Source of the DNA: an uncultured Eubacteriales bacterium
Lineage (GTDB): Bacteria > Bacillota > Clostridia > Christensenellales > CAG-138
Direction: 5' to 3'
NCBI GenBank assembly: GCA_900544965.1
Contig: UQXE01000002.1
Location: 15,385-79,384 of the forward strand
Length of the DNA stretch: 64,000 nucleotides
Shown piece after piece: positions 20,755 through 32,812 of this stretch; position 1 is the stretch's first letter, and each line of letters opens with the position of its first letter. Made by a program: the position numbers and the translations under genes. The notes under the pieces were generated by a model. That model worked only from the letters and a program-made list of their open reading frames with translations. It searched no databases and was not told where the DNA came from.

Positions 20755-22179
20755 CTATTTCTTGTGACTTTTACTGAACAGCACAACACCTGCACCAGTC
20801 ACAGCTGTAAGGATTCCTATTGCGGCCAGGCTTACCGCACCGGCGGCAGGAATATCCGAGGGGTCTGGTTCGGGCGTTGGCGTTATCGACGGTTCGGGGC
20901 TGGGCGTTACCAGCGGCGCGGGTGTTGGAGTTGCCGGCGGTTCAGGGCTAGGCGTTACAAGCGGCGTGGGTGTTGGCGTTGCCGGTGGTTCAGGGGTAGG
21001 CGTTACTGGTGGCTCAATAATGCCAGGAGGTGCAATTTCCTCAAGTATAAGTACTTCCGTATCGAAATTATGGCGGTTGCCCTGACCAAGCTCACCTTCA
21101 AAATTCCAGCCGTATCCATAAAGCTCGTTACCGTTCTTTACAAGTAAGTTAAAGTCAGCGCCGGAAGCGATATAGTCTACACCACCAATAAAGTATGTCG
21201 GCTCTATCAGGTTCAAGAGCTCCGTATTTCCGGGCAGACACTGCCTGCGGTTATTTGCACCCCATACATATAGATCGCCGTTATTTTTAACTGCAATGGT
21301 ATGCACATTCCCGCATTGTACCTGCTTAACATCCGATAATACAATCGTGGGAGTAAGGACGGGGTTAGATTGAGTTTCTATACCAACTTGGTATGAAGAG
21401 TTTTGTCCGAACATATAGAGGTCTCCAGCTGTGGTAAGGACAGCGCTGTGCGCGTTTCCGCAGCTCATGGAATCGATCTCAATACCTTCCATAATTTGCA
21501 CGGGGGCATTGGAAATCTGGGTATCTCCTGTACCAAGCTGGCCATATGTGTTGTATCCCCATGACCATAGGGTGCCATCTGACTTCAATGCAATATTGTG
21601 GTAGGTGCCCGCGGCGACAGAAATAACATCTTCCATAATCTGCGTAGGCGTATTGAGGGTATACCATTCGCCGGTGCCAAGCTGACCATAGTCGTTTTTA
21701 CCCCACGACCAAAGCGTTCCATCCTTTTTTATGGCAAGCGTGTGTTGGAAGCCGCTGCTAACGGCGGCAACGCTTTCCATAACAAGGAAGGGGGTAGCCT
21801 TGTTCGCATAATCTCCTAAGCCAAGCTGACCGCTTGTGTTTTGTCCCCAGCCATAGAGTTCACCATCCTCGGTAATTGCCATGCTGTGGAATCCCCCAAG
21901 GCTTACCATTGCTATGCCGCCTTCAAATACACGTTCGGGAGAAAACGCATTATAGCTCGGATCCTCGTTGTCAACGCCAAGTTGGAAAGAGCCGTTGTTC
22001 CCCCAAATCCAAAGGGAACCATCTGGTTTAACTGCGGCAGCATGATATGCGCCGCCGCTGACGGTTTTAGCAAGATCTACGCCGGCATATTCCGTAGCGT
22101 AAGTCTTGCCAGCAAATACGCCGAAAATGCTGCAAAAACAAATCGCAAGCATCAGCATACTTGATAGCACTTTTTTCAT
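20755..22179 (-). CDS. secreted RCC1-repeat (beta-propeller) protein with Pro/Thr-rich stalk and C-terminal TM anchor
   Basis: 474 aa. Signal peptide (MKKVLSSMLMLAICFCSIFGVFAGKTYA). Seven repeats of G..H..A....G.L..WG.N..GQLG. Then a PEPPATPTP..PLVTPS tandem stalk, a hydrophobic segment (AAGAVSLAAIGILTAVTGAGVVLF) and a KSHKK tail. No LPXTG motif. Confidence 0.8.
   Translation of the reverse strand: MKKVLSSMLMLAICFCSIFGVFAGKTYATEYAGVDLAKTVSGGAYHAAAVKPDGSLWIWGNNGSFQLGVDNEDPSYNAFSPERVFEGGIAMVSLGGFHSMAITEDGELYGWGQNTSGQLGLGDYANKATPFLVMESVAAVSSGFQHTLAIKKDGTLWSWGKNDYGQLGTGEWYTLNTPTQIMEDVISVAAGTYHNIALKSDGTLWSWGYNTYGQLGTGDTQISNAPVQIMEGIEIDSMSCGNAHSAVLTTAGDLYMFGQNSSYQVGIETQSNPVLTPTIVLSDVKQVQCGNVHTIAVKNNGDLYVWGANNRRQCLPGNTELLNLIEPTYFIGGVDYIASGADFNLLVKNGNELYGYGWNFEGELGQGNRHNFDTEVLILEEIAPPGIIEPPVTPTPEPPATPTPTPLVTPSPEPPATPTPAPLVTPSPEPSITPTPEPDPSDIPAAGAVSLAAIGILTAVTGAGVVLFSKSHKK
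20867..21015. repeat. 48-nt tandem repeat (about 2.6 copies) encoding the Pro/Thr-rich stalk
   Basis: Units at 20891-20938 and 20939-20986 are near-identical. Partial units flank them. Each unit encodes 16 aa (PEPPATPTP(A/T)PLVTPS) on the minus strand. Confidence 0.85.
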
Positions 22180-22359: not shown

Positions 22360-23442
22360 ATGCAATCTGAAAATATAAATCCAATAATGGAAGCGCTTAC
22401 ATATTATAGATATAGGGCATGCGGTAAAAGTATATATGAAAGCCTAAACAGGTATATGGATATTTCTGAAGCGCTTAAAATTGAACTGAGACAAAGATTT
22501 AATCCCATAAAACAGCTTGAAAGTATACTTAACGAGCAGCTTAATATACCTCAAAGCATCATAAAGCAATATTTCAAACCAATGGACGAGGGAATGGGTG
22601 TTCGTGGCTTTTCGCTTGCAGATATCATCTATATGATCCCATCTCACAGTGTTTTTGTTGACTTCGATACTGCAGAAAAAGAGATACTTTCCTATACCAG
22701 CGACGAAAAGAGAGAGATAATTACAGCTTCTCTTGTCCGGAATAACAAGCTGTTTAGCGAGTCTGATTTAAGCTGCGATAATTTTCTAAAGGTTATTGAA
22801 AGGCAGCATATGAGCGACGAGGAAAAGTGGCGGTTGATACTACTCTATAATAACTTTGATTCCATCGCGGCAGAGGTTTCGTATATGCTTCGAACCGCGG
22901 TTGAGATAATCCAGAATAATAGTTCGATTTACGAAGGAATAATCGATGAATTCAACGCTTGCTACAGCAAAATCGAAGGAAACCTGGGCGCTTATTTTTC
23001 AGCACAATATGATGCTAACATACCCGTATATGATGATGGGTTACTGTTCCCGTGGCTTTTCGGGTATGGCGATATTCAAAGCGTTTATTCTGACGAATTA
23101 AATAAAACCTCTTTTACATTTCTGGGGGTGCTTGTTGATTTTATCGCTAAAAAGGTCAGAAAAAAGCTTATGCCCAACGATTGCGATAGTCTGCTCAAGG
23201 TATTGAGCGACCCCAATAGGGCCAATATATTAAAATATCTTTGTGACAAGAACGCATATGGGCTTGAACTTGCCGAATACCTTAAGCTGTCCCCAAATAC
23301 TGTTTCCCATCACATAAACAAGCTGCTGATAAATGGATTTATAACATCAGAGGCGGAGGGCAACCGTGTGTATTACCAGTCAAATAAGGACAATATTGAA
23401 AAATTCCTGAAAATGCTTTCAGCAATGTTTTTAGGGAGGTAA
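22360..23442 (+). CDS. ArsR-family winged-HTH regulator with about 270-aa N-terminal domain of unknown function
   Basis: 360 aa. The C-terminal about 90 aa carry the ArsR/SmtB pattern (LKVLSDPNRANILKYL....AYGLELAEYLKLSPNTVSHHINKLLINGFI......GNRVYY). I do not recognise the N-terminal part. The gene is AT-rich. Confidence 0.75.
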   Translation: MQSENINPIMEALTYYRYRACGKSIYESLNRYMDISEALKIELRQRFNPIKQLESILNEQLNIPQSIIKQYFKPMDEGMGVRGFSLADIIYMIPSHSVFVDFDTAEKEILSYTSDEKREIITASLVRNNKLFSESDLSCDNFLKVIERQHMSDEEKWRLILLYNNFDSIAAEVSYMLRTAVEIIQNNSSIYEGIIDEFNACYSKIEGNLGAYFSAQYDANIPVYDDGLLFPWLFGYGDIQSVYSDELNKTSFTFLGVLVDFIAKKVRKKLMPNDCDSLLKVLSDPNRANILKYLCDKNAYGLELAEYLKLSPNTVSHHINKLLINGFITSEAEGNRVYYQSNKDNIEKFLKMLSAMFLGR

Positions 23443-23460
23443 AGTCTGCGGCTATGAGTT

Positions 23461-23491
23461 AAAAAACCCCGCTTATTAAGCGGGAATTTTT
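23461..23491 (+). terminator. intrinsic terminator after the ArsR-like gene
   Basis: A-run, CCCGCTT-att-AAGCGGG stem, then AATTTTT. Confidence 0.7.
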
Positions 23492-23719
23492 GTATGTGTG
23501 TGACGGGTGCTGTAAAGTTATAAGCTGTTTAAAAAGTTCTGATTTGTGACGCCTTTCGCCTAGGCGTGGTAAGTGTGAGCGTAGGCCCATAGGTATATAT
23601 TCTAGCCGCTCCCTCAAAACACATGATATATTTTATATACTCACCCGGCTTAATACTACATTAATACGCACTTATTCCATCGAATTAATTTGAATACTAA
23701 AATAATATAAAGTTATTTG

Positions 23720-23748
23720 TTGACGAGTGACTAAAATTGTGATACAAT
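23720..23748 (+). promoter_or_regulatory. candidate sigma-A promoter of the cas operon
   Basis: TTGACG (23720-23725), 17-nt spacer, TACAAT (23743-23748) preceded by TGa (extended -10). Lies about 33 nt upstream of the cas3 ATG. Confidence 0.5.
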
Positions 23749-23780
23749 AAAACAACAAATATCAAGGAAAACTGAGATTT

Positions 23781-25982
23781 ATGTCCATTGAATCCGATAA
23801 GCTTTTAGCTCGTATAAGCGAAGACGAGACACGTAAACAAACAATAATAGATCATTTATTAGGGACTGCGGAATTGGCCGGAAGGTTTGCAAACGCATTT
23901 AACAACAGGGAATTGGGATATGCCTGCGGCCTGCTTCACGACATAGGCAAATATTCGCAAGGCTTTCAGAGGAGGTTAAGGGGCGGCCCTAAAGTCGACC
24001 ATGCAACCGCAGGTGCTAAGGAAGCTTCAAACTATGCTTCGGAAATGGGTTATGTCGCTTCATTTTGCGCCCAATATTGCATATCCGGCCACCACTCGGG
24101 ACTGCTGGACTTTGGCACTGCTAGCGACGTAGGAGGAACTCCAACGCTTAAGGGACGACTAAATAAGCGGCTGGACGATTATCAGGCGTACAAGCAGGAG
24201 ATAGAAATTCCAAAAATTCCGAAAATTCCATTAAAGCCTCTGGATAATGATATTCAGGGGTTCAGCGCGGCGTTTCTTATCCGCATGATCTTTTCGTGTC
24301 TGGTGGACGCCGACCGTCTCGACACAGAGCGATTTATGTCAAACGGAGCAGTTCAAAGGGGCGGCTACGACAGCATGCTTACCCTGTTTGAAAGATTAAA
24401 TAATAAAGTCAGGCCGTGGCTGGAGAACGGCGACCTAAATACTGTAAACGGAAGACGGACGGCGATATTAAAGGCCTGTCTGGACAAGGGGCGTTCCGCA
24501 CGGGGCCTTTTTACGCTGACAGTTCCAACCGGAGGCGGTAAAACCATATCATCCCTCGCGTTTGCGCTTCAGCACGCTGTTGAAAACGGGATGGAGCGCA
24601 TAATCTATGTAATTCCTTATACCAGCATTATCGAGCAGAACGCGGGTGTATTTAAAGACATACTAGGCGAAATAAACGTCTTAGAGGATCATTCAAATGT
24701 AACCTATAAAAAAGGAGGCGATGAGCTCGACCTGATGCAGCTTGCAGCCGAGAACTGGGACATGCCCGTAATCGTCACAACAAATGTACAGTTTTTCGAG
24801 TCTCTCTTTTCAAACGGCACATCCAAATGCCGCAAGATACATAATATTGCAAACAGCGTGATCATATTTGATGAAGCGCAGATGCTTCCTACCCAGTATT
24901 TAAAGCCATGCTTGCAGGCAATAGCCGAACTGGTTTATAATTACCGCAGTACTGCGGTAATATGCACGGCGACCCAGCCGGCCCTGGAGAAATTTTTTCC
25001 AGAGGCATTAGAGCTAGAGCCAGTTGAAATCTGTCCCGAGCCGGCAGGCCAGTATGAGTTTTTCCGCCGTACAAGTATAAAACATATTGGAGAAATTTCT
25101 GAAGAGGAGCTGATAGAGCGCCTTAAACAGCGGGATCAGGCGCTGTGTATTCTCAACAGCCGCAAACGGGTTCAGCGTGTCTACGACGCTCTAGGAGGCG
25201 AGGGTACATATCATCTTTCGACGTTTATGTATCCTGCCCACAGAAGCCGCATACTGGCTGAAATCAAAGCGCGGCTAAAGGATAAAAAGCCATGCAGGCT
25301 TATAGCGACCAGCTTGGTAGAAGCGGGGGTGGATCTTGACTTTAGAGCTGTGTTCAGGGAGTTGGCAGGGGTTGACTCCTTGATACAGGCGGCCGGGCGG
25401 TGCAACCGCGAGGGAGAAGAGGACAGATATGAGTGCGAAACCATTGTATTCAGCCTAACAAAGACAGAGGGCATAAACATTCCACGCAGCTTGGAGATGC
25501 CCATTGACGTAACAAAGCAGATAGTGGAAGCGCATGGAGACGTTATGTCCCTTGAGGCCATAAAAGACTATTTTGAAAGGCTATATAAGTACAAAGGTGA
25601 AAATGGGCTGGATTTAAAGGGTGTCTTAAATAATTTCAAAAAGGGATTGTTCATTCCGTTCGCATCAGTAGCGGATAAATTTAAATTAATCGAGGAGAAT
25701 ACCAAATCGGTATTCATTGAGCCTACTCCTATAGATGAAGACTCACAGAAAGCGGCCGATATAGCAAAGCGCCTGAGAAGCGGGGAGCATACCCGGTCGC
25801 TGACAAGGGACGCCGGACAATACAGCGTAAATATATATGAAAGCGATTTTGAAACACTCCGCGGCGCGGGCCTATTGGAGGAACCCCGTCTTGAAATATA
25901 TATATTGAGGGATAAGCGCCTGTACTCTAAAGATAAAGGGCTGATTTTAAATGTAAGCAGAGGTGATGCGTTGGTTTTCTAA
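23781..25982 (+). CDS. cas3: CRISPR-associated nuclease/helicase Cas3 (HD domain fused N-terminally)
   Basis: 733 aa. HD domain (H..G.......CGLLHDIGKYS, DH), helicase Walker A (VPTGGGKT), DEAQ box and SLVEAGVD. Confidence 0.92.
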   Translation: MSIESDKLLARISEDETRKQTIIDHLLGTAELAGRFANAFNNRELGYACGLLHDIGKYSQGFQRRLRGGPKVDHATAGAKEASNYASEMGYVASFCAQYCISGHHSGLLDFGTASDVGGTPTLKGRLNKRLDDYQAYKQEIEIPKIPKIPLKPLDNDIQGFSAAFLIRMIFSCLVDADRLDTERFMSNGAVQRGGYDSMLTLFERLNNKVRPWLENGDLNTVNGRRTAILKACLDKGRSARGLFTLTVPTGGGKTISSLAFALQHAVENGMERIIYVIPYTSIIEQNAGVFKDILGEINVLEDHSNVTYKKGGDELDLMQLAAENWDMPVIVTTNVQFFESLFSNGTSKCRKIHNIANSVIIFDEAQMLPTQYLKPCLQAIAELVYNYRSTAVICTATQPALEKFFPEALELEPVEICPEPAGQYEFFRRTSIKHIGEISEEELIERLKQRDQALCILNSRKRVQRVYDALGGEGTYHLSTFMYPAHRSRILAEIKARLKDKKPCRLIATSLVEAGVDLDFRAVFRELAGVDSLIQAAGRCNREGEEDRYECETIVFSLTKTEGINIPRSLEMPIDVTKQIVEAHGDVMSLEAIKDYFERLYKYKGENGLDLKGVLNNFKKGLFIPFASVADKFKLIEENTKSVFIEPTPIDEDSQKAADIAKRLRSGEHTRSLTRDAGQYSVNIYESDFETLRGAGLLEEPRLEIYILRDKRLYSKDKGLILNVSRGDALVF

Positions 25983-26034
25983 CGGCGCAAATAATCAATA
26001 AAATAACTTTCTTGGAATGGAAAGGAGGGAGCAG

Positions 26035-26694
26035 ATGGGTATAGGTGTTAGTATAAGGACATGGGGAGAACTGGCGCTGTTTTCGCGCCCTGAGATGAAG
26101 GTAGAGCGGTGTAGTTACGACGTTATAACGCCGTCGGCAGCCAGGGGTGTTCTCGAAGCCATCTACTGGCATCCCGGCATACGCTGGGTCATTGACAAAA
26201 TCTATGTGATGAAGCCGATTCAGTTTACCAGCATACGAAGAAACGAGGTTAAGGGTAAATTATCCGCTAGAAACGCTTTAAGCGCAATGAACGGCTCAAA
26301 GACGCAGCTTTACGTAAGCAGCAGGGAAAATATCGTCCAGCGGGCCTCAATATTGCTTAGCGATGTAGAATATGTGATCGACGCTCATTTCGAATTGACC
26401 GACAAAGCAAACGAATCCGACAACTCCGGCAAGTTTAAGGATATAATCATGAGGCGCCTAAGAAAGGGTCAGTGTTATCATACCCCGTATTTTGGCTGCA
26501 GGGAGTTTCCGGCAAGGTTTGAGCTGTTTGAGGGAGATGGGGTTGAAACCGCATATCAGGATACGGAAAAGGATCTGGGCTATATGCTTTATGACTTAGA
26601 TTACTCGGATCCGGAGAACATTCAGCCCATGTTCTTTCGCGCAGTGCTTAAAAACGGGGTTTTGGATTTGAGTAATTGCGAGGTGATACGATGA
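26035..26694 (+). CDS. cas5c: type I-C Cas5c (Cas5d) pre-crRNA endoribonuclease
   Basis: The N-terminus (IRTWGELALFSRPEMKVERCSYDVITPSAARGVLEAIYWHP) is the hallmark Cas5d block. The ATG at 26035 follows AAGGAGGGAG and is preferred to 26017. Confidence 0.9.
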   Translation: MGIGVSIRTWGELALFSRPEMKVERCSYDVITPSAARGVLEAIYWHPGIRWVIDKIYVMKPIQFTSIRRNEVKGKLSARNALSAMNGSKTQLYVSSRENIVQRASILLSDVEYVIDAHFELTDKANESDNSGKFKDIIMRRLRKGQCYHTPYFGCREFPARFELFEGDGVETAYQDTEKDLGYMLYDLDYSDPENIQPMFFRAVLKNGVLDLSNCEVIR

Positions 26695-28574
26695 TATTGC
26701 AGTCGTTGGTTCAATATTATGAAGCGCTTGAAAGCAAGGGGCGTATCACAAGGCCTGGCTGGTGCAGGGCTAAGGTTTCGTTTGCCCTGAGAATTTCTGA
26801 ATCCGGAGAGCTTTTGGACGTAATCAGGCTGACAAACGATGTTGAGATCCGGCAAAAGAAGGGCGGCATTAAGATCATAAAGGAACCCCAGCCGCTGATC
26901 GTTCCGGAAATGGTTACAACCCGCACCATAAAGGTAACCGCAAACTTTCTGTGCGATAATACCAGTTACATTTTGGGTGTAGACAATAAGGGAAAGCCTG
27001 CACGATCACGGGAATGTTTTAACTGTGCCAAGGAGAAGCATCTGGAGCTGTTGGATTCAGTGGACAGTGCAGCTGCAAAGGCGGTTAAAAATTATTTTCA
27101 AAACTGGAACCCTGAAACGGCTATGGACAATGCTGCGCTGAACGATTATCTGGATGAAATGATGTCTGGCGGCAATTTGATTTTTGATATAGCTAATTTC
27201 GGGTATGCTCATGAGGACAAGGCCATAAGGGAAGCGTGGGAACGCCATCTTGAACGCGCCGAGGCGGATGGCGAAGATGCGGGGACTTGCCTGATAACGG
27301 GCAGGCGTTCCAAGATAGCCAGAATACACGGAAACATAAGGGGCGTAAGGGGAGCTCAGTCCAGCGGCGCTTCGCTTGTGTCGTTCAACGACCCGTCCTT
27401 TGAATCATATGAAAAAAAGCAAAGCTTCAACGCCCCGATAAGTACCTACGCCGCTTATGCGTATACCACAGCCCTGAATCACCTGATATCAGACTCCCAG
27501 CACTCCACCGTAATAGGAGACGCCACGATTGTATACTGGTCTGAGGATGGAAATGAAGAATATCAGGACATCTTTTCTGCCGTGACAGAGCCTAAGGAGG
27601 ACAACTATGAGATAGTTGACGGCGTGTTCAAAAAACTGGAGGCGGGAAGGGCCGTTGACGTTGACAACGTTATTGGCCATATAACGTTGGATAAGCGGTT
27701 CTACATCTTAGCGATAGCGCCCAACGCGGCAAGGCTGGCTATTAGGTTTTTCTATCAGGACAGCTTTGAAAAAATATTAGGGCACCTTAAGGATCACTAC
27801 GACAGGATGGAGATAGCGAGACCCGAGTGGGAAACCAGCAAACGTAAATACATTGGCGCCTGGCGGATGCTTCAGGAGACTGTAAATAAAAAGTCAAAGG
27901 ATAAAAAGCCCGTTTCCAGCATGGCGTCATCGGTATTGCGCGCGATGATATCGGGGGGAAAATATCCGGAGACATTATATCTTAACACCCTGGGCAGGAT
28001 TTACGCGGAGCAGGACGACGAGGAATCCAAAATCTCTAAAATAACCAGCGGCAGGGCCGCGATCATCAAGGCCTATCTATTGAGAAATAAAAACTACGAT
28101 AAGGAGGAAATTCCTATGGGATTGAATGTAGCCTGTGATAACGTAGCCTATGTGCTGGGCAGGACGTTTTCGGTATTGGAGGCGATACAGGAGGATTCAA
28201 ATGATAATAGAAATGACAAAAAAAATGAAAAAAGAAAGAAATCTATAAATTCTACAATTAAGGATAGATACTTTAACGCCGCGTGCGCTACGCCGGCGTC
28301 CATCTTCCCAGTCCTGTTCAAATTAAAGAACAGCCATATAAGAAAGATTGATAGTCCAAATATGGTAATCCATTATGAAAAGCTGTTGACGGAGCTTCAG
28401 TCAAAGGTGCCGGCCGCGGAGCATCAGTGCGCCGCTTATCCCAAGCGGCTTTCGCTTGAGGAACAGGGCATGTTTGTCTTAGGCTATTATCATCAAAATG
28501 AGAAGCGCTACGAAAAGAGATCAAAGGATAGTGATAACAAATCAAATGAAAATAAAGGGCAGGAGGCTGAATAA
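26691..28574 (+). CDS. cas8c: type I-C large subunit Cas8c (Csd1)
   Basis: Starts MILQSLVQYYEAL, the typical Csd1 N-terminus. ATGA overlap with the cas5c stop. About 627 aa. Confidence 0.88.
   Translation: MILQSLVQYYEALESKGRITRPGWCRAKVSFALRISESGELLDVIRLTNDVEIRQKKGGIKIIKEPQPLIVPEMVTTRTIKVTANFLCDNTSYILGVDNKGKPARSRECFNCAKEKHLELLDSVDSAAAKAVKNYFQNWNPETAMDNAALNDYLDEMMSGGNLIFDIANFGYAHEDKAIREAWERHLERAEADGEDAGTCLITGRRSKIARIHGNIRGVRGAQSSGASLVSFNDPSFESYEKKQSFNAPISTYAAYAYTTALNHLISDSQHSTVIGDATIVYWSEDGNEEYQDIFSAVTEPKEDNYEIVDGVFKKLEAGRAVDVDNVIGHITLDKRFYILAIAPNAARLAIRFFYQDSFEKILGHLKDHYDRMEIARPEWETSKRKYIGAWRMLQETVNKKSKDKKPVSSMASSVLRAMISGGKYPETLYLNTLGRIYAEQDDEESKISKITSGRAAIIKAYLLRNKNYDKEEIPMGLNVACDNVAYVLGRTFSVLEAIQEDSNDNRNDKKNEKRKKSINSTIKDRYFNAACATPASIFPVLFKLKNSHIRKIDSPNMVIHYEKLLTELQSKVPAAEHQCAAYPKRLSLEEQGMFVLGYYHQNEKRYEKRSKDSDNKSNENKGQEAE
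28116..28574 (+). CDS. cas11c: candidate internally translated small subunit Cas11c (nested in-frame in the cas8c 3' end)
   Basis: A perfect AAGGAGG (28101-28107) lies 8 nt upstream of an in-frame ATG at 28116. Product would be about 152 aa (MGLNVACDNVAYVLGRTFSVLEAIQ...). Confidence 0.5.
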   Translation: MGLNVACDNVAYVLGRTFSVLEAIQEDSNDNRNDKKNEKRKKSINSTIKDRYFNAACATPASIFPVLFKLKNSHIRKIDSPNMVIHYEKLLTELQSKVPAAEHQCAAYPKRLSLEEQGMFVLGYYHQNEKRYEKRSKDSDNKSNENKGQEAE

Positions 28575-29467
28575 TGATGTCAGAGGCAATTAAAAACAGG
28601 TATGAATTCGTAATTTTATTCGATGTGGAAAACGGGAATCCAAATGGGGACCCTGACGCGGGAAACCTGCCAAGGATGGATCCCGAAAGCGGATACGGCC
28701 TGGTAACGGACGTTTGCATCAAGCGGAAGATAAGGAACTACGTAGAAGCGGTCAAGGAGGATGCTCCGGGCTATAAAATATATATAAAAGAGGATGTTTC
28801 GCTCAACCGAAGTGACAGCAGCGCTTACGAATACCTTGGAATCAATGCCAGCAACGTAAAGGACGCTAAAAAGAGCGATCCTGACCTTGACAGGAAGATA
28901 CGGGATTTCATGTGCCAGAACTTCTTTGATATACGTACGTTCGGTGCGGTTATGACCACCTTTGTAAAGGCGGCGCTGAACTGCGGCCAGGTGCGCGGAC
29001 CGGTGCAAATCGGATTTGCGCGCAGCATCGACCCTGTAATAAGCCAGGAGGTCACCATCACCCGCGTTGCGATTACAAAGGAAGAGGATACCGAAAAAAA
29101 GAGCACGGAGATGGGACGAAAGAGCATAATCCCCTATGCGCTTTACAGGGCGGAAGGCTATGTATCGGCAAATCTTGCCCGTAAAACAACCGGCTTCTCC
29201 GAAGAGGATCTAGAGCTATTGTGGGAAGCCATCCTAAACATGTTTGAAAATGACCGTTCGGCCGCCAGAGGAAAGATGGCTGTCAGGGAGCTTATTGTAT
29301 TTAAGCACAGCAGCGAATTGGGCGATTGTCCAGCTCATAAGCTGTTTGACACAGTGGAGGTTAAGCGCAGGGACGACGTGGAATATCCAAGACAATATGG
29401 GGATTACAGCTTAGAGATACATGAGGACAGAATTCCGGCTACAGTAGAGCTTATAAGAAAGTTATAA
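28574..29467 (+). CDS. cas7c: type I-C Cas7c (Csd2) backbone subunit
   Basis: 297 aa. NRYEFVILFDVENGNPNGDPDAGNLPR.D...G.GLVTDVCIKRKIRNY is the signature Csd2 N-terminus. Confidence 0.92.
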   Translation: MMSEAIKNRYEFVILFDVENGNPNGDPDAGNLPRMDPESGYGLVTDVCIKRKIRNYVEAVKEDAPGYKIYIKEDVSLNRSDSSAYEYLGINASNVKDAKKSDPDLDRKIRDFMCQNFFDIRTFGAVMTTFVKAALNCGQVRGPVQIGFARSIDPVISQEVTITRVAITKEEDTEKKSTEMGRKSIIPYALYRAEGYVSANLARKTTGFSEEDLELLWEAILNMFENDRSAARGKMAVRELIVFKHSSELGDCPAHKLFDTVEVKRRDDVEYPRQYGDYSLEIHEDRIPATVELIRKL

Positions 29468-30132
29468 TGGAATACAGGGAAGACGAATATCTGATGCTTT
29501 CGGGCATACAGCACTTTGCTTTTTGCAGGAGGCAATGGGCCCTTATCCACGTTGAGCAGCAGTGGCAGGAAAACGAACATACTGTTATAGGCGAGCTGTT
29601 CCATAAAAGGGCCCATGACCCCTATTTTCATGAAAAAAGAAATGATCTGATTGTCAGCAGGGGAGTGCCCGTCCATTCCAGATCGATGGGGGTAAGCGGA
29701 GTATGCGATATCATTGAGTTCTATAAGGTTGAGGACGGCATTTCCCTTCACGGGCGCAGGGGGCTGTATAGGGTATATCCGGTTGAATATAAAAAGGGGC
29801 ATCCAAAGGAGACGAGGGCAGACCAGCTGCAGCTTGCGGCTCAAGCAATGTGCCTTGAGGAGATGATGTGCTGTAAAATCGACGAGGGAGCTATATTTTA
29901 TGGGGAAACGCGCCGAAGGGACAGAGTGGCCATTACGGAGGAGCTTAGAGAAGAGGTAGTCAAAACCTTTAAGGAGATGCATGAGCTGTTTAATAGAGGA
30001 TACACCCCAAAGGTAAAATGGTCAAAGAGCTGCAATGCGTGCTCACTCAAAGACCTATGCCTTCCAAAGTTAGGCAGGTCGCCCTCCGTTGCGGAGTATA
30101 TTAAGAATGCGCTCGCAGAGGATGATATATGA
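29467..30132 (+). CDS. cas4: Cas4 RecB-like exonuclease
   Basis: 221 aa. N-terminal Cys (FAFCRRQW), nuclease core (D.IE....L..VEYKKG) and C-terminal C..C....C (CNACSLKDLC). Confidence 0.9.
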   Translation: MEYREDEYLMLSGIQHFAFCRRQWALIHVEQQWQENEHTVIGELFHKRAHDPYFHEKRNDLIVSRGVPVHSRSMGVSGVCDIIEFYKVEDGISLHGRRGLYRVYPVEYKKGHPKETRADQLQLAAQAMCLEEMMCCKIDEGAIFYGETRRRDRVAITEELREEVVKTFKEMHELFNRGYTPKVKWSKSCNACSLKDLCLPKLGRSPSVAEYIKNALAEDDI

Positions 30133-31160
30133 AAAAGCTGCTTAACAGCCTGTATGTTACATCTCCTGAAAATTACCTTTCACTGGACGGGGAGAACATT
30201 GTTATACTTGAAAACGGTCAGGAGCTGGGCAGAATTCCGCTGCATAACTTAGAGGCGGTAATTTCGTTTGGATACAGAGGAGTCAGCCCAGCGCTGATGG
30301 GCAAGTGTTCAGAACAGAATATTTCTCTATGCTTTATCAGTCCTAACGGCAGATTTCTTGCAAGAGTGACAGGGGGCGTTAAGGGAAATGTGATATTAAG
30401 AAAAAAGCAGTACCGGGTTTCTGAGGATGAAAAACTAAGCTTTGAAATAGCTAAAAATTGCGTGTTGGGTAAAGTATATAATTGCCGCTGGGTTTTAGAG
30501 CGGGCCACAAGGGATCACAGCACACAGATAGATCTTGAAAGGGTTAAGCGGGCGTCCTCATTTCTTCAGCAATCGCTTACAAATATTTCATTAAGCCGAT
30601 ATATGGCCCAGCTGCGCGGATATGAGGGAGAAGCCGCGAGCGTCTATTTTGGGGTTTTTGATCAGCTAATCCTTCAGCAGAAGAAGGAGTTTACGTTTCA
30701 TGGCAGAAGCAGAAGACCTCCTCTTGATAATGTAAACGCCATGTTATCCTTTATATATACGCTGCTTGCTAACACTATTGAATCAGCTTTGGAGTCCGTA
30801 GGGCTTGACCCATACGTAGGCTTCATGCATACAGATAGGCCAGGAAGAGCGTCCTTGGCGCTGGACTTAATTGAAGAGCTGCGTTCGGTTCTGGCCGACC
30901 GCTTCGTGCTTACAATGATCAATAAAAAAATGATAACTGGCCGGGGGTTCTCAAAAAAGGAGGATGGGGCGGTAATGATGAAGGATGATACGAAAAAGCT
31001 CATCCTGACCGCATGGCAGAATAAGAAGAAGGATGTAATCACCCATCCCTACCTTGGAGAAAAGGTGGAATGGGGTATGATACCATTCGTTCAAGCCATG
31101 CTGCTGGCCAGACACCTGAGGGGCGATATAGACGAATATCCACCGTTCCTTTGGAAGTAG
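30129..31160 (+). CDS. cas1: Cas1 integrase, type I-C
   Basis: 343 aa. LYV......LS.DGENIVI, GYEG.AA..YF, N..LSF.YT.L, G.DPY.GF.H. Confidence 0.93.
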   Translation: MKKLLNSLYVTSPENYLSLDGENIVILENGQELGRIPLHNLEAVISFGYRGVSPALMGKCSEQNISLCFISPNGRFLARVTGGVKGNVILRKKQYRVSEDEKLSFEIAKNCVLGKVYNCRWVLERATRDHSTQIDLERVKRASSFLQQSLTNISLSRYMAQLRGYEGEAASVYFGVFDQLILQQKKEFTFHGRSRRPPLDNVNAMLSFIYTLLANTIESALESVGLDPYVGFMHTDRPGRASLALDLIEELRSVLADRFVLTMINKKMITGRGFSKKEDGAVMMKDDTKKLILTAWQNKKKDVITHPYLGEKVEWGMIPFVQAMLLARHLRGDIDEYPPFLWK

Positions 31161-31172
31161 GTGATAGCTTTG

Positions 31173-31460
31173 ATGGTTCTTATAACTTACGACGTTAACA
31201 CAGAAACCGCCGAAGGGAGGACCAGACTGAGGAGAGTAGCTAAACAGTGTGTTAATTATGGAACGCGCGTACAGAACTCTGTCTTTGAGTGCCTATTGGA
31301 CAAAGCCCAATGCGTGGCGCTTAAGTCTATGTTAACCGATATCATTGACGAAGAGCTTGACAGCCTAAGATTTTATTATCTGGGAAACAATCATAGGACA
31401 AAAATTGAACATATTGGCGTTGATAAGGGTATTGATATGGAACAGCCGCTGATCTATTGA
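31173..31460 (+). CDS. cas2: Cas2
   Basis: MVLITYDV........RLRRVAK.C.NYG.RVQNSVFEC. The ATG at 31173 lies 8 nt after AGGTGA. The ORF track starts at the GTG at 31161. Confidence 0.9.
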   Translation: MVLITYDVNTETAEGRTRLRRVAKQCVNYGTRVQNSVFECLLDKAQCVALKSMLTDIIDEELDSLRFYYLGNNHRTKIEHIGVDKGIDMEQPLIY

Positions 31461-31656
31461 ACGGAAAAGTCTAAGTACGGAAGCGTAGGCGTCTATTAAT
31501 ATCGCTTTATAGAGGATAATTAAAGAGATTGGCGTTTACAGGTTGAGTTTATTTGTCGCTAACGGTTTTATCCATTGACCATAAGGATTTTAACCTCTGA
31601 AGCTATTTTAATAATATTTATAAGCTTGTATTATTTAGTTATATATACCCTCAGTT

Positions 31657-31687
31657 GACAAGGGCAACAACCTTGTCGGCGTTTTGT
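31657..31687 (+). terminator. hairpin plus short T-run, about 200 nt downstream of cas2 (weak terminator candidate)
   Basis: GACAAGG-gcaacaa-CCTTGTC followed by ggcgTTTTgt. Confidence 0.3.
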
Positions 31688-31936
31688 ATAATGTTTGATT
31701 CTCATATATAATCTGGAACGCATTATGGGATAAAAAGATTATCATAAATAGATACATTATAAATTAAGTTTTATTAACTTTACAAGTACTGAACCCATTA
31801 ATTGAAAACGCCGTGCTAATCTGCAAAATAGATAATCAAAGTATATCAAATGTTTATAAGCGTTTTTATAGCCAGCCGTTATAAATTAATGTGAGCGTTT
31901 GTATATATAGCATATAAGAGGACAGGAGGTGTCTTT

Positions 31937-32812
31937 ATGGAATACAGACGAAGACGTAGGCGCCGTGGGACAAGAAACGGAGGTTCGGGCGCTGGCGGAG
32001 TGGTTTTAGCAATAGTGCTGGTTGCGGGTATGATCTATTTTGTCACCGCATCCTCCGCCGGCACCTGGATCGCGCAAAACGTAGTCGCGCCGCTGTTTGG
32101 TACGGCTACCCACAGTCCGGATCCGTCGGCAACGCCTGATGATAACCCCGCGATAAACTCGGGCGACCTCGTTACACGCGAGATTGATCTGCCATCGATA
32201 TCCTGCTATATGTTGCAGATGGGTGCATTCGAATCCAAAGAAAATGCCGAAAAGCTAGCCAACGATATCAAAGACCAAGGGGCGGCCGGTTACGTATATC
32301 AGGACAGCGAACGCTTCAGGGTGCTTGCGTCGGGATACGGAAGCGAGAGCGACGCCAAGAGCGTAAGGGATAGGCTAAAGGATGAGGGCCATGACTGCAC
32401 GGTATTCAACCTAGCGGCATCAGGAGCAAGTTTCCGCGTTACAGCGACGGAGGCGCAGCTGAACAATGTTGAAAGCGGTTTTAAAGCCCTGCTCGATACG
32501 TGCAATGAAATCATGGAGGCGTCAATATCTTTTGATGAAAATAAATCCCAGGTTTCAGAGGGAAAAGCCGCAGTCGGAGAAATTCTTACAAAACTCAAAA
32601 ATGCAGTAGAACCGCTGAAATCCGTTACATCCTCCGACGAGGTGCTGTTGAGGGTTATTGAATGCTATGATAGATATAGCAGTTTATTATCCGCACTTTC
32701 CAACGAACAAACAGAAAGTTTTGTGGATTTTTCGTCGAAAATGAAGTATACTCAATTACAGTTAACGCATGAATACGTTAAGCTGATGGAGGCGCTGTCC
32801 TCCCAAGGCTGA
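31937..32812 (+). CDS. SPOR domain-containing membrane protein
   Basis: 291 aa. Poly-Arg N-terminus, one TM helix (VVLAIVLVAGMIYFV), then a SPOR-like block (YMLQMGAFESKENAEKLANDIKDQGAAGYVYQD.ERFRVLASGYGSESDAKSVRDRLK). Confidence 0.7.
   Translation: MEYRRRRRRRGTRNGGSGAGGVVLAIVLVAGMIYFVTASSAGTWIAQNVVAPLFGTATHSPDPSATPDDNPAINSGDLVTREIDLPSISCYMLQMGAFESKENAEKLANDIKDQGAAGYVYQDSERFRVLASGYGSESDAKSVRDRLKDEGHDCTVFNLAASGASFRVTATEAQLNNVESGFKALLDTCNEIMEASISFDENKSQVSEGKAAVGEILTKLKNAVEPLKSVTSSDEVLLRVIECYDRYSSLLSALSNEQTESFVDFSSKMKYTQLQLTHEYVKLMEALSSQG

Follow-up and report, generated by a model that had tools for sequence, protein, structure and literature searches.

The 64-kb stretch of DNA analysed here (the window; contig C2:15385-79384 of assembly G000) comes from an uncultured member of the Christensenellales and includes a complete type I-C operon of cas genes, the genes associated with CRISPR (short palindromic repeats that are clustered and regularly interspaced). 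No CRISPR array lies beside the operon. An earlier note, made from the letters of the window, left three explanations: the operon uses a distant array, it has recently lost its array and kept a leader-like relic, or it is an array-less locus with another role. G000 is a metagenome-assembled genome of 1.94 Mb in 89 contigs, which by its marker genes is 95.5% complete with 0% contamination. A large array of the I-C type lies elsewhere in this assembly, on contig C3, and we are confident that the locus is part of a canonical, functional-looking type I-C system in which the cas operon and the array occupy separate chromosomal sites, and not of an array-less one.

The cas operon and its flanks

The seven genes of the operon are listed in Table 1. 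We assigned them by searching the open reading frames (ORFs) of the window with NCBIfam profiles at their curated cut-offs. All seven products (Cas3, Cas5c, Cas8c/Csd1, Cas7/Csd2, Cas4, Cas1c and Cas2) exceed the cut-offs over the full profile length. Two profiles match Cas3, one at the HD domain (TIGR01596, residues 24-182, 93.7 bits for a cut-off of 43.5) and one at the core (TIGR01587, residues 245-570, 127.8 bits for a cut-off of 102.5). From cas5c to cas1 the genes show start/stop coupling, with overlaps of 1-4 nucleotides (nt). These overlaps and the profile scores bear out the earlier description of seven intact, coupled I-C genes. The set has the features of type I-C membership: the Cas8c signature, Cas5c without Cas6, an HD-helicase Cas3 together with Cas7c, and Cas4-Cas1c-Cas2. 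There is no cas6 in the operon, where the seven ORFs fill positions 23781-31460 and leave no room for one.

Cas5c aligns over residues 9-216 with the solved Cas5c chains of type I-C (E 4e-71, best 8DEX and 7KHA), and it is the predicted type I-C endoribonuclease for the precursor (pre-crRNA) of the CRISPR RNAs (crRNAs). For cas8c, the likely start is the ATG at 26691 rather than the TTG at 26676; this ATG is preceded by a GAGGTG Shine-Dalgarno sequence and overlaps the cas5c stop codon. Inside cas8c and in frame with it, an AAGGAGG Shine-Dalgarno sequence and an ATG at 28116 would give a product of 152 amino acids (aa), a candidate for the Cas11c small subunit. Searching the assembly by tblastn with all seven Cas proteins gives no second cas locus, and in searches with hidden Markov models the Cas1 and Cas5c of the window are the sole copies.

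Table 1. The cas genes and flanking features, in positions of the window.
Feature	Position	Strand	Description
Upstream intergenic tract	23443..23780	+	No repeats; holds the putative cas promoter and the terminator of the ArsR-family gene
Putative cas promoter	23720..23748	+	TTGACG-17-TACAAT with TG extension, sigma-70-like; 10/12 consensus
cas3	23781..25982	+	733 aa; HD nuclease and superfamily 2 (SF2) helicase
cas5c	26017..26694	+	225 aa; TIGR01876, 174 bits (cut-off 85)
cas8c/csd1	26691..28574	+	Large subunit, subtype signature; TIGR01863, 419.5 bits (cut-off 218.7), profile positions 1-587 of 588
cas7c/csd2	28574..29467	+	297 aa, backbone subunit; TIGR02589, 353.9 bits (cut-off 182.3)
cas4	29467..30132	+	221 aa; TIGR00372, 135.4 bits (cut-off 65)
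cas1c	30129..31160	+	343 aa; TIGR03640, 482.7 bits (cut-off 385)
cas2	31161..31460	+	99 aa; TIGR01573, 61.7 bits (cut-off 24.5)
Post-cas2 AT-rich intergenic tract	31461..31936	+	476 nt, non-coding, from cas2 to the SPOR-domain gene
Terminator-like hairpin GTTGACAAGGGCAACAACCTTGTCGGC	31654..31680	+	10-bp stem followed by GTTTTGT

The putative cas promoter, called by pattern match alone, ends 32 nt 5' of the cas3 ATG, and its sigma-70-like pattern agrees with the good promoter reported before cas3 in the earlier note. At 23467-23485 in the same tract, the ArsR-family gene has its terminator, a bidirectional hairpin. At the other end of the operon, the terminator-like hairpin stands about 195 nt after cas2 and is probably where the cas transcript ends. 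Five further sites of the genome (on C1, C19, C21, C60 and C62) have matches to this hairpin, 20-40 nt in length and 82-100% identical, and two of the five border a dispersed repeat family of about 270 bp that is found on C60, C23, C5 and C62.

The two intergenic tracts and the rest of the window had been read by eye as free of CRISPR repeats, and this is confirmed in three ways. A direct-repeat search of the whole window gives no CRISPR-like repeats, returning a coding periodicity of 24 nt at 20871-21014 and one chance pair of 20-mers; a spaced-repeat scan of contig C2 returns that coding repeat alone; and blastn-short with the genome's own I-C repeat gives no match of at least 14 nt in C2. 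The locus is isolated in the sense that no CRISPR lies within 10-20 kb of it; C2 extends for 39 kb on the cas3 side of the operon and for 41 kb on the cas2 side. Two likenesses to repeat ends picked out by eye, GTCGCT...ATTGACC near 31554 and AATTGAAAAC near 31800, were rejected as chance: the spacing is wrong, there is no match of at least 14 nt, and the leader model R1 (see below) is negative. An Rfam scan of 23300-32100 found nothing relevant. The coding repeat at 20871-21014 is Gly-rich, with a period of eight codons, and belongs to an ORF of 474 aa on the minus strand (20755-22179) that has no NCBIfam match.

The remote array and its leader

A genome-wide repeat scan, followed by refinement, places an I-C-type array of 92 repeats and 91 spacers at C3:70814-76999, on the minus strand. 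The repeats are 32-33 nt long, and 68 of the 92 read GTCGCACCCCGTGTGGGGTGCGTGGATTGAAAT, a sequence that folds into a GC-rich stem of 8 bp with an 11-nt 3' tail (-16.6 kcal/mol), which is the type I-C architecture. The feature that marks a cognate array, a hairpin repeat of this length with the form GTCGC...ATTGAAAT/C, is thus present in the genome, outside the window. The spacers are 33-38 nt long and all unique, save for one sequence present twice. The 61 leader-proximal repeats are identical, the variants cluster at the trailer side, and the array looks recently extended. Its leader is AT-rich and carries the promoter pattern TTGAAA-17-TATAAT with a TG extension (11/12 consensus). Given the contig ends, at least 46 kb separate this array from the cas operon. 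Smaller, degenerate arrays are found at C20:12356-13462, C44:2201-2625 and C60:5932-6275.

The operon in the window is the only cas locus of the assembly, and it is of the same subtype as the only large array. With an array that has its own leader and promoter, and a single cas locus, the distant array is the one of the three early explanations that proves correct, and the system is an ordinary one, as had been foreseen should an array of the I-C type turn up elsewhere in the genome. The array-less locus with another role finds no support, since a cognate array exists in the same genome.

In the leaders of relatives, a conserved element of the form GTGCGAA-~29 nt-TTCGCAC lies directly after cas2, some 140-190 nt before the first repeat. 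Its arms GCGAA/TTCGC do not vary, and next to them one further pair covaries. We describe this leader element with a covariance model, R1, built from 19 training sequences that include the copy in C3. On I-C loci that were not used in training, R1 matches right after cas2 with E-values from 6e-12 to 2e-5; the matches include Bacillus cereus, Paenibacillus, Rhizobium, Thermus thermophilus, Nitratidesulfovibrio vulgaris pDV and Blautia schinkii, amongst others, and the element is thus seen in I-C loci from several phyla. An Rfam scan of the leader regions gave no family for the element. A preprint (bioRxiv 10.1101/2023.05.26.542337, with reference to Santiago-Frangos et al. 2021) mentions motifs that are specific to the subtype and stand 100-200 bp upstream of the I-C repeats; the leader element is probably one of them.

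Across the whole G000 assembly, R1 has one significant copy, at C3:77120-77169 (minus strand) in the leader of the array, with an E-value of 1e-7; this match is partly by construction, as the C3 sequence is in the training set. Over positions 23000-32500 of the window, with filters off, nothing is significant, and the best E-value (0.3) falls inside cas7c. The 476-nt tract after cas2 gives no match at E-values up to 10, and the cas loci of two congeners, G002 and G003, give none either. Comparison of the tracts after cas2 and before cas3 with the C3 leader finds only chance matches of 7-18 nt. The tract after cas2 is ordinary intergenic DNA and not a leader relic, because R1 finds no element in it and has its single genomic copy in the C3 leader. 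The break between the cas operon and the leader with its array lies past the cas2 stop codon and ahead of the I-C leader element, so that the element, the leader and the array have come away from the operon together.

Age of the split layout and proposed working

Twelve relatives from the same family or order have an I-C-like Cas1, and in nine of them an array follows about 140-190 nt after cas2. Adjacency of cas2 and the array is the ancestral state in view of these nine, whose repeats have the same GTCGC-stem-GCGTGGATTGAAAT architecture as those of C3; the stems differ in sequence and are still self-complementary. The congeners G002 and G003 have a syntenic cas operon in which the SPOR-domain gene again comes next after cas2, with no array between; they share this junction with G000 at a nucleotide identity of about 87-91%, and the cas2-SPOR spacer is homologous in all three, with indels. 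The split predates the divergence of these three species, because the array-free junction is common to all of them. G001, G002 and G003 have remote arrays with near-identical repeats and the same handle sequences, the differences being in the repeat stem-loop, and the flank of the G003 array leader is homologous to C3:77000-77837.

These comparisons bear on the possibility that an array after cas2 was recently deleted and that 31461-31936 is its decaying leader. The ancestral adjacency agrees with such a loss, and so does a tract that is AT-rich and non-coding. We consider it extremely improbable nonetheless: the presence of the array-free junction in two other species makes it old, the leader element sits in the C3 leader and nowhere in the searched part of the window, and the tract has neither a significant likeness to the C3 leader nor a residual repeat of at least 14 nt. 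The recent loss with a leader relic, as put forward in the earlier note, is not supported, given the junction shared with two congeners and the negative R1 search after cas2.

Between G000 and G002, the ratio of nonsynonymous to synonymous substitution rates (dN/dS) ranges from 0.03 to 0.17 across the seven cas genes (0.034 for cas7c and 0.17 for cas3), with 0.08 for the neighbouring SPOR gene. These values show purifying selection on the cas genes, the adaptation genes cas1, cas2 and cas4 included, and selection has therefore kept the operon going in its split form.

The separate-site layout depends on C2 and C3 belonging together. C3 appears to be native to the lineage, because the region C3:58258-67144 shares 87% identity with contigs of the congeners G002 and G001, the tetranucleotide profile of C3 has a correlation of 0.96 with that of the remaining assembly, and the contamination is 0%. 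The cas operon shows the same divergence from G002 as C3:58258-67144 does from the congeners. One could still propose an orphan operon with a non-immune role, the C3 array then being either mis-binned or a fossil left unused by these Cas proteins. Contig membership in a metagenome-assembled genome is itself inferred, and some contigs deviate in composition, which would allow it. The synteny of C3 with the congeners and the lack of contamination speak against it, as do the I-C-type arrays with the same handles in three congeners, two of which also have the syntenic operon. In addition, the repeat architecture in C3 is that of the closest Cas1 relatives, the identical leader-proximal repeats together with the TTC and TTT flanks described next argue for recent adaptation of the I-C type, and cas1, cas2 and cas4 are under purifying selection. 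An orphan operon is, on balance, highly unlikely.

The C3 spacers have no match in the cultured-phage collection, and a few near-perfect protospacers are found in 150 genomes of the family. The protospacer of spacer 77 has the 5' flank TTC and that of spacer 37 has TTT, each with 1 mismatch; the protospacer of spacer 39 occurs in two family genomes, with the 5' flanks TTT and TTC. The TTC-flanked site of spacer 39 is also the one matched by spacer 65, which therefore adds no independent example. The flanks trend towards the expected 5'-TTC motif, in a sample too small for a logo of the protospacer-adjacent motif (PAM). Spacer 14 has a perfect 34/34 match within C3 itself, at C3:83222-83255, about 6 kb from the array, where the flank is AAT instead of TTC; this flank would exempt the site from I-C interference. 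From the C3 leader to the end of the contig there are about 7 kb of small ORFs, with no Cas assignment and no Pfam or PHROG family.

The self-match is relevant to the idea that, although operon and array are there, interference is switched off, either by repression or by an anti-CRISPR. Silencing would explain why the self-match is tolerated, and the small ORFs of no known family beside the leader would suit it. The AAT flank alone would prevent I-C interference, however, and both the purifying selection on the cas genes and the recently extended look of the array speak against silencing, which we regard as unlikely.

For the system with operon and array at separate sites, we infer from the sequences that transcription, processing, interference and adaptation would work in trans in the following way. 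The cas operon would be transcribed from its own promoter, ending at the hairpin about 195 nt after cas2, and the C3 array would supply crRNAs in trans from its own leader promoter; the degenerate mini-arrays may also add crRNAs. Cas5c would cut the repeat hairpin, so that the crRNAs from C3 would bear the 11-nt 5' handle UGGAUUGAAAU. Cascade would consist of Cas5c, Cas8c, Cas7c and possibly the internally translated Cas11c, and Cas3 would degrade TTC-flanked targets. Cas1-Cas2-Cas4 would insert new spacers at the leader-repeat junction of C3. Some points weigh against this reading. That C2 and C3 are physically linked in one cell, and how far apart they really lie, is deduced from a fragmented genome of 89 metagenomic contigs. 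The sample of flanks is thin, amounting to two independent TTC and two TTT flanks from three protospacer families. Finally, the self-match of spacer 14, which fits the tolerance of a site without a PAM, fits an inactive system equally.

The degenerate mini-arrays differ in their surroundings. The region C20:12356-13462 (L003:4357-5463) has two of them, with 1 and about 5 full repeats, on the two sides of a RelB/YafQ toxin-antitoxin pair (L003:4547-5078). The upstream one starts with a truncated repeat, and the stop codon of a methyltransferase gene falls at the end of this truncated repeat; the surroundings include this methyltransferase, GNAT acetyltransferases, BlaI/BlaR-like genes and MnmG. 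The C44 mini-array is leaderless, lies beside an XRE-family gene and a cation-efflux gene, and is syntenic in G002, a genome in which three mini-arrays are spread along one contig. The one on C60, also leaderless, lies beside a methyltransferase and PSP1. We rejected a location on a prophage or mobile element, as the neighbours are housekeeping genes (MnmG, MetRS, Fe-hydrogenase, PSP1, cation-efflux protein). We also rejected a duplicated module comprising the methyltransferase genes of C20 and C60, which have no DNA homology beyond the repeats. Solitary partial I-C repeats occur outside any array at C6:62665-62698 and C3:5924-5941, and these could be array remnants or solitary units. A different repeat, a unit of 58-59 nt with two hairpins (CTAAGTGCTGTTCAGCACTTAG and AAAGGCCTTATGGCCTTT), forms short tandem runs at the ends of 28 G000 contigs, as at C85:16-113, C75:3734-3851 and C39:105-221, with 67 blast hits. 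This unit evidently breaks the assembly, and it looks like a repeat family of the intergenic REP (repetitive extragenic palindrome) type.

The uncoupling across the genus and the several leaderless mini-arrays that start with a truncated repeat amid housekeeping genes might together reflect something beyond a simple rearrangement, either an undescribed dispersal of I-C arrays or crRNAs of a regulatory or addiction type. Dispersal might then proceed by ectopic integration or by recombination seeded at repeats. We think such an explanation improbable.

Comparison with known systems

The layout is conserved within the genus, and the locus belongs to an ordinary type I-C system whose array is remote; it has little significance beyond correct annotation. 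It does illustrate how little a missing array beside cas2 says for an array-less system when one window is read, and that the whole assembly needs scanning, above all in metagenome-assembled genomes, whose arrays frequently end up on other contigs. It also offers a clean natural case in which a large I-C array, apparently growing, is served in trans, with a layout kept in three species. The leader element has moved with the array and not with cas2, which fits an action on the array side, in integration or in array transcription.

Amongst type I-C systems (Dvulg), the loci of Nitratidesulfovibrio vulgaris Hildenborough pDV and of plasmids of the Bacillus cereus group have the same seven genes and no cas6, and the I-C plasmid loci that we fetched have the same cas7c-cas4-cas1-cas2 order as the window operon. 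The Cas1 of the window shares about 50% identity with its N. vulgaris counterpart and 62% with the one from B. cereus. As in the Dvulg type, the C3 repeats are 32-33 nt long and end in ATTGAAAT, and the same upstream leader element is present; the few protospacer flanks trend towards the TTC type. Unlike the plasmid loci, in most of which the leader element follows cas2 with the array directly after, the leader and array here and in two congeners are distant from the operon, by at least 46 kb in G000. Type I cas loci that stand apart from distant arrays are known, at 12% of the type I total (Zhang and Ye 2017, PMC5294841); distant arrays are 23% of arrays and have a mean of 13 repeats (Bernheim et al. 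2019, PMC7145637). The use of such arrays in trans is documented (PMC5294841; PMC7145637). The present case resembles isolated cas loci such as the I-F locus of Zymomonas mobilis with its scattered arrays: a complete type I locus has no CRISPR within 10-20 kb, and other parts of the genome carry arrays with cognate repeats, whose spacer diversity implies activity. It differs from the reported distant arrays in size, with 92 repeats against that mean of 13, and from the Z. mobilis I-F case in its subtype, I-C, and in its host, an uncultured member of the Christensenellales.

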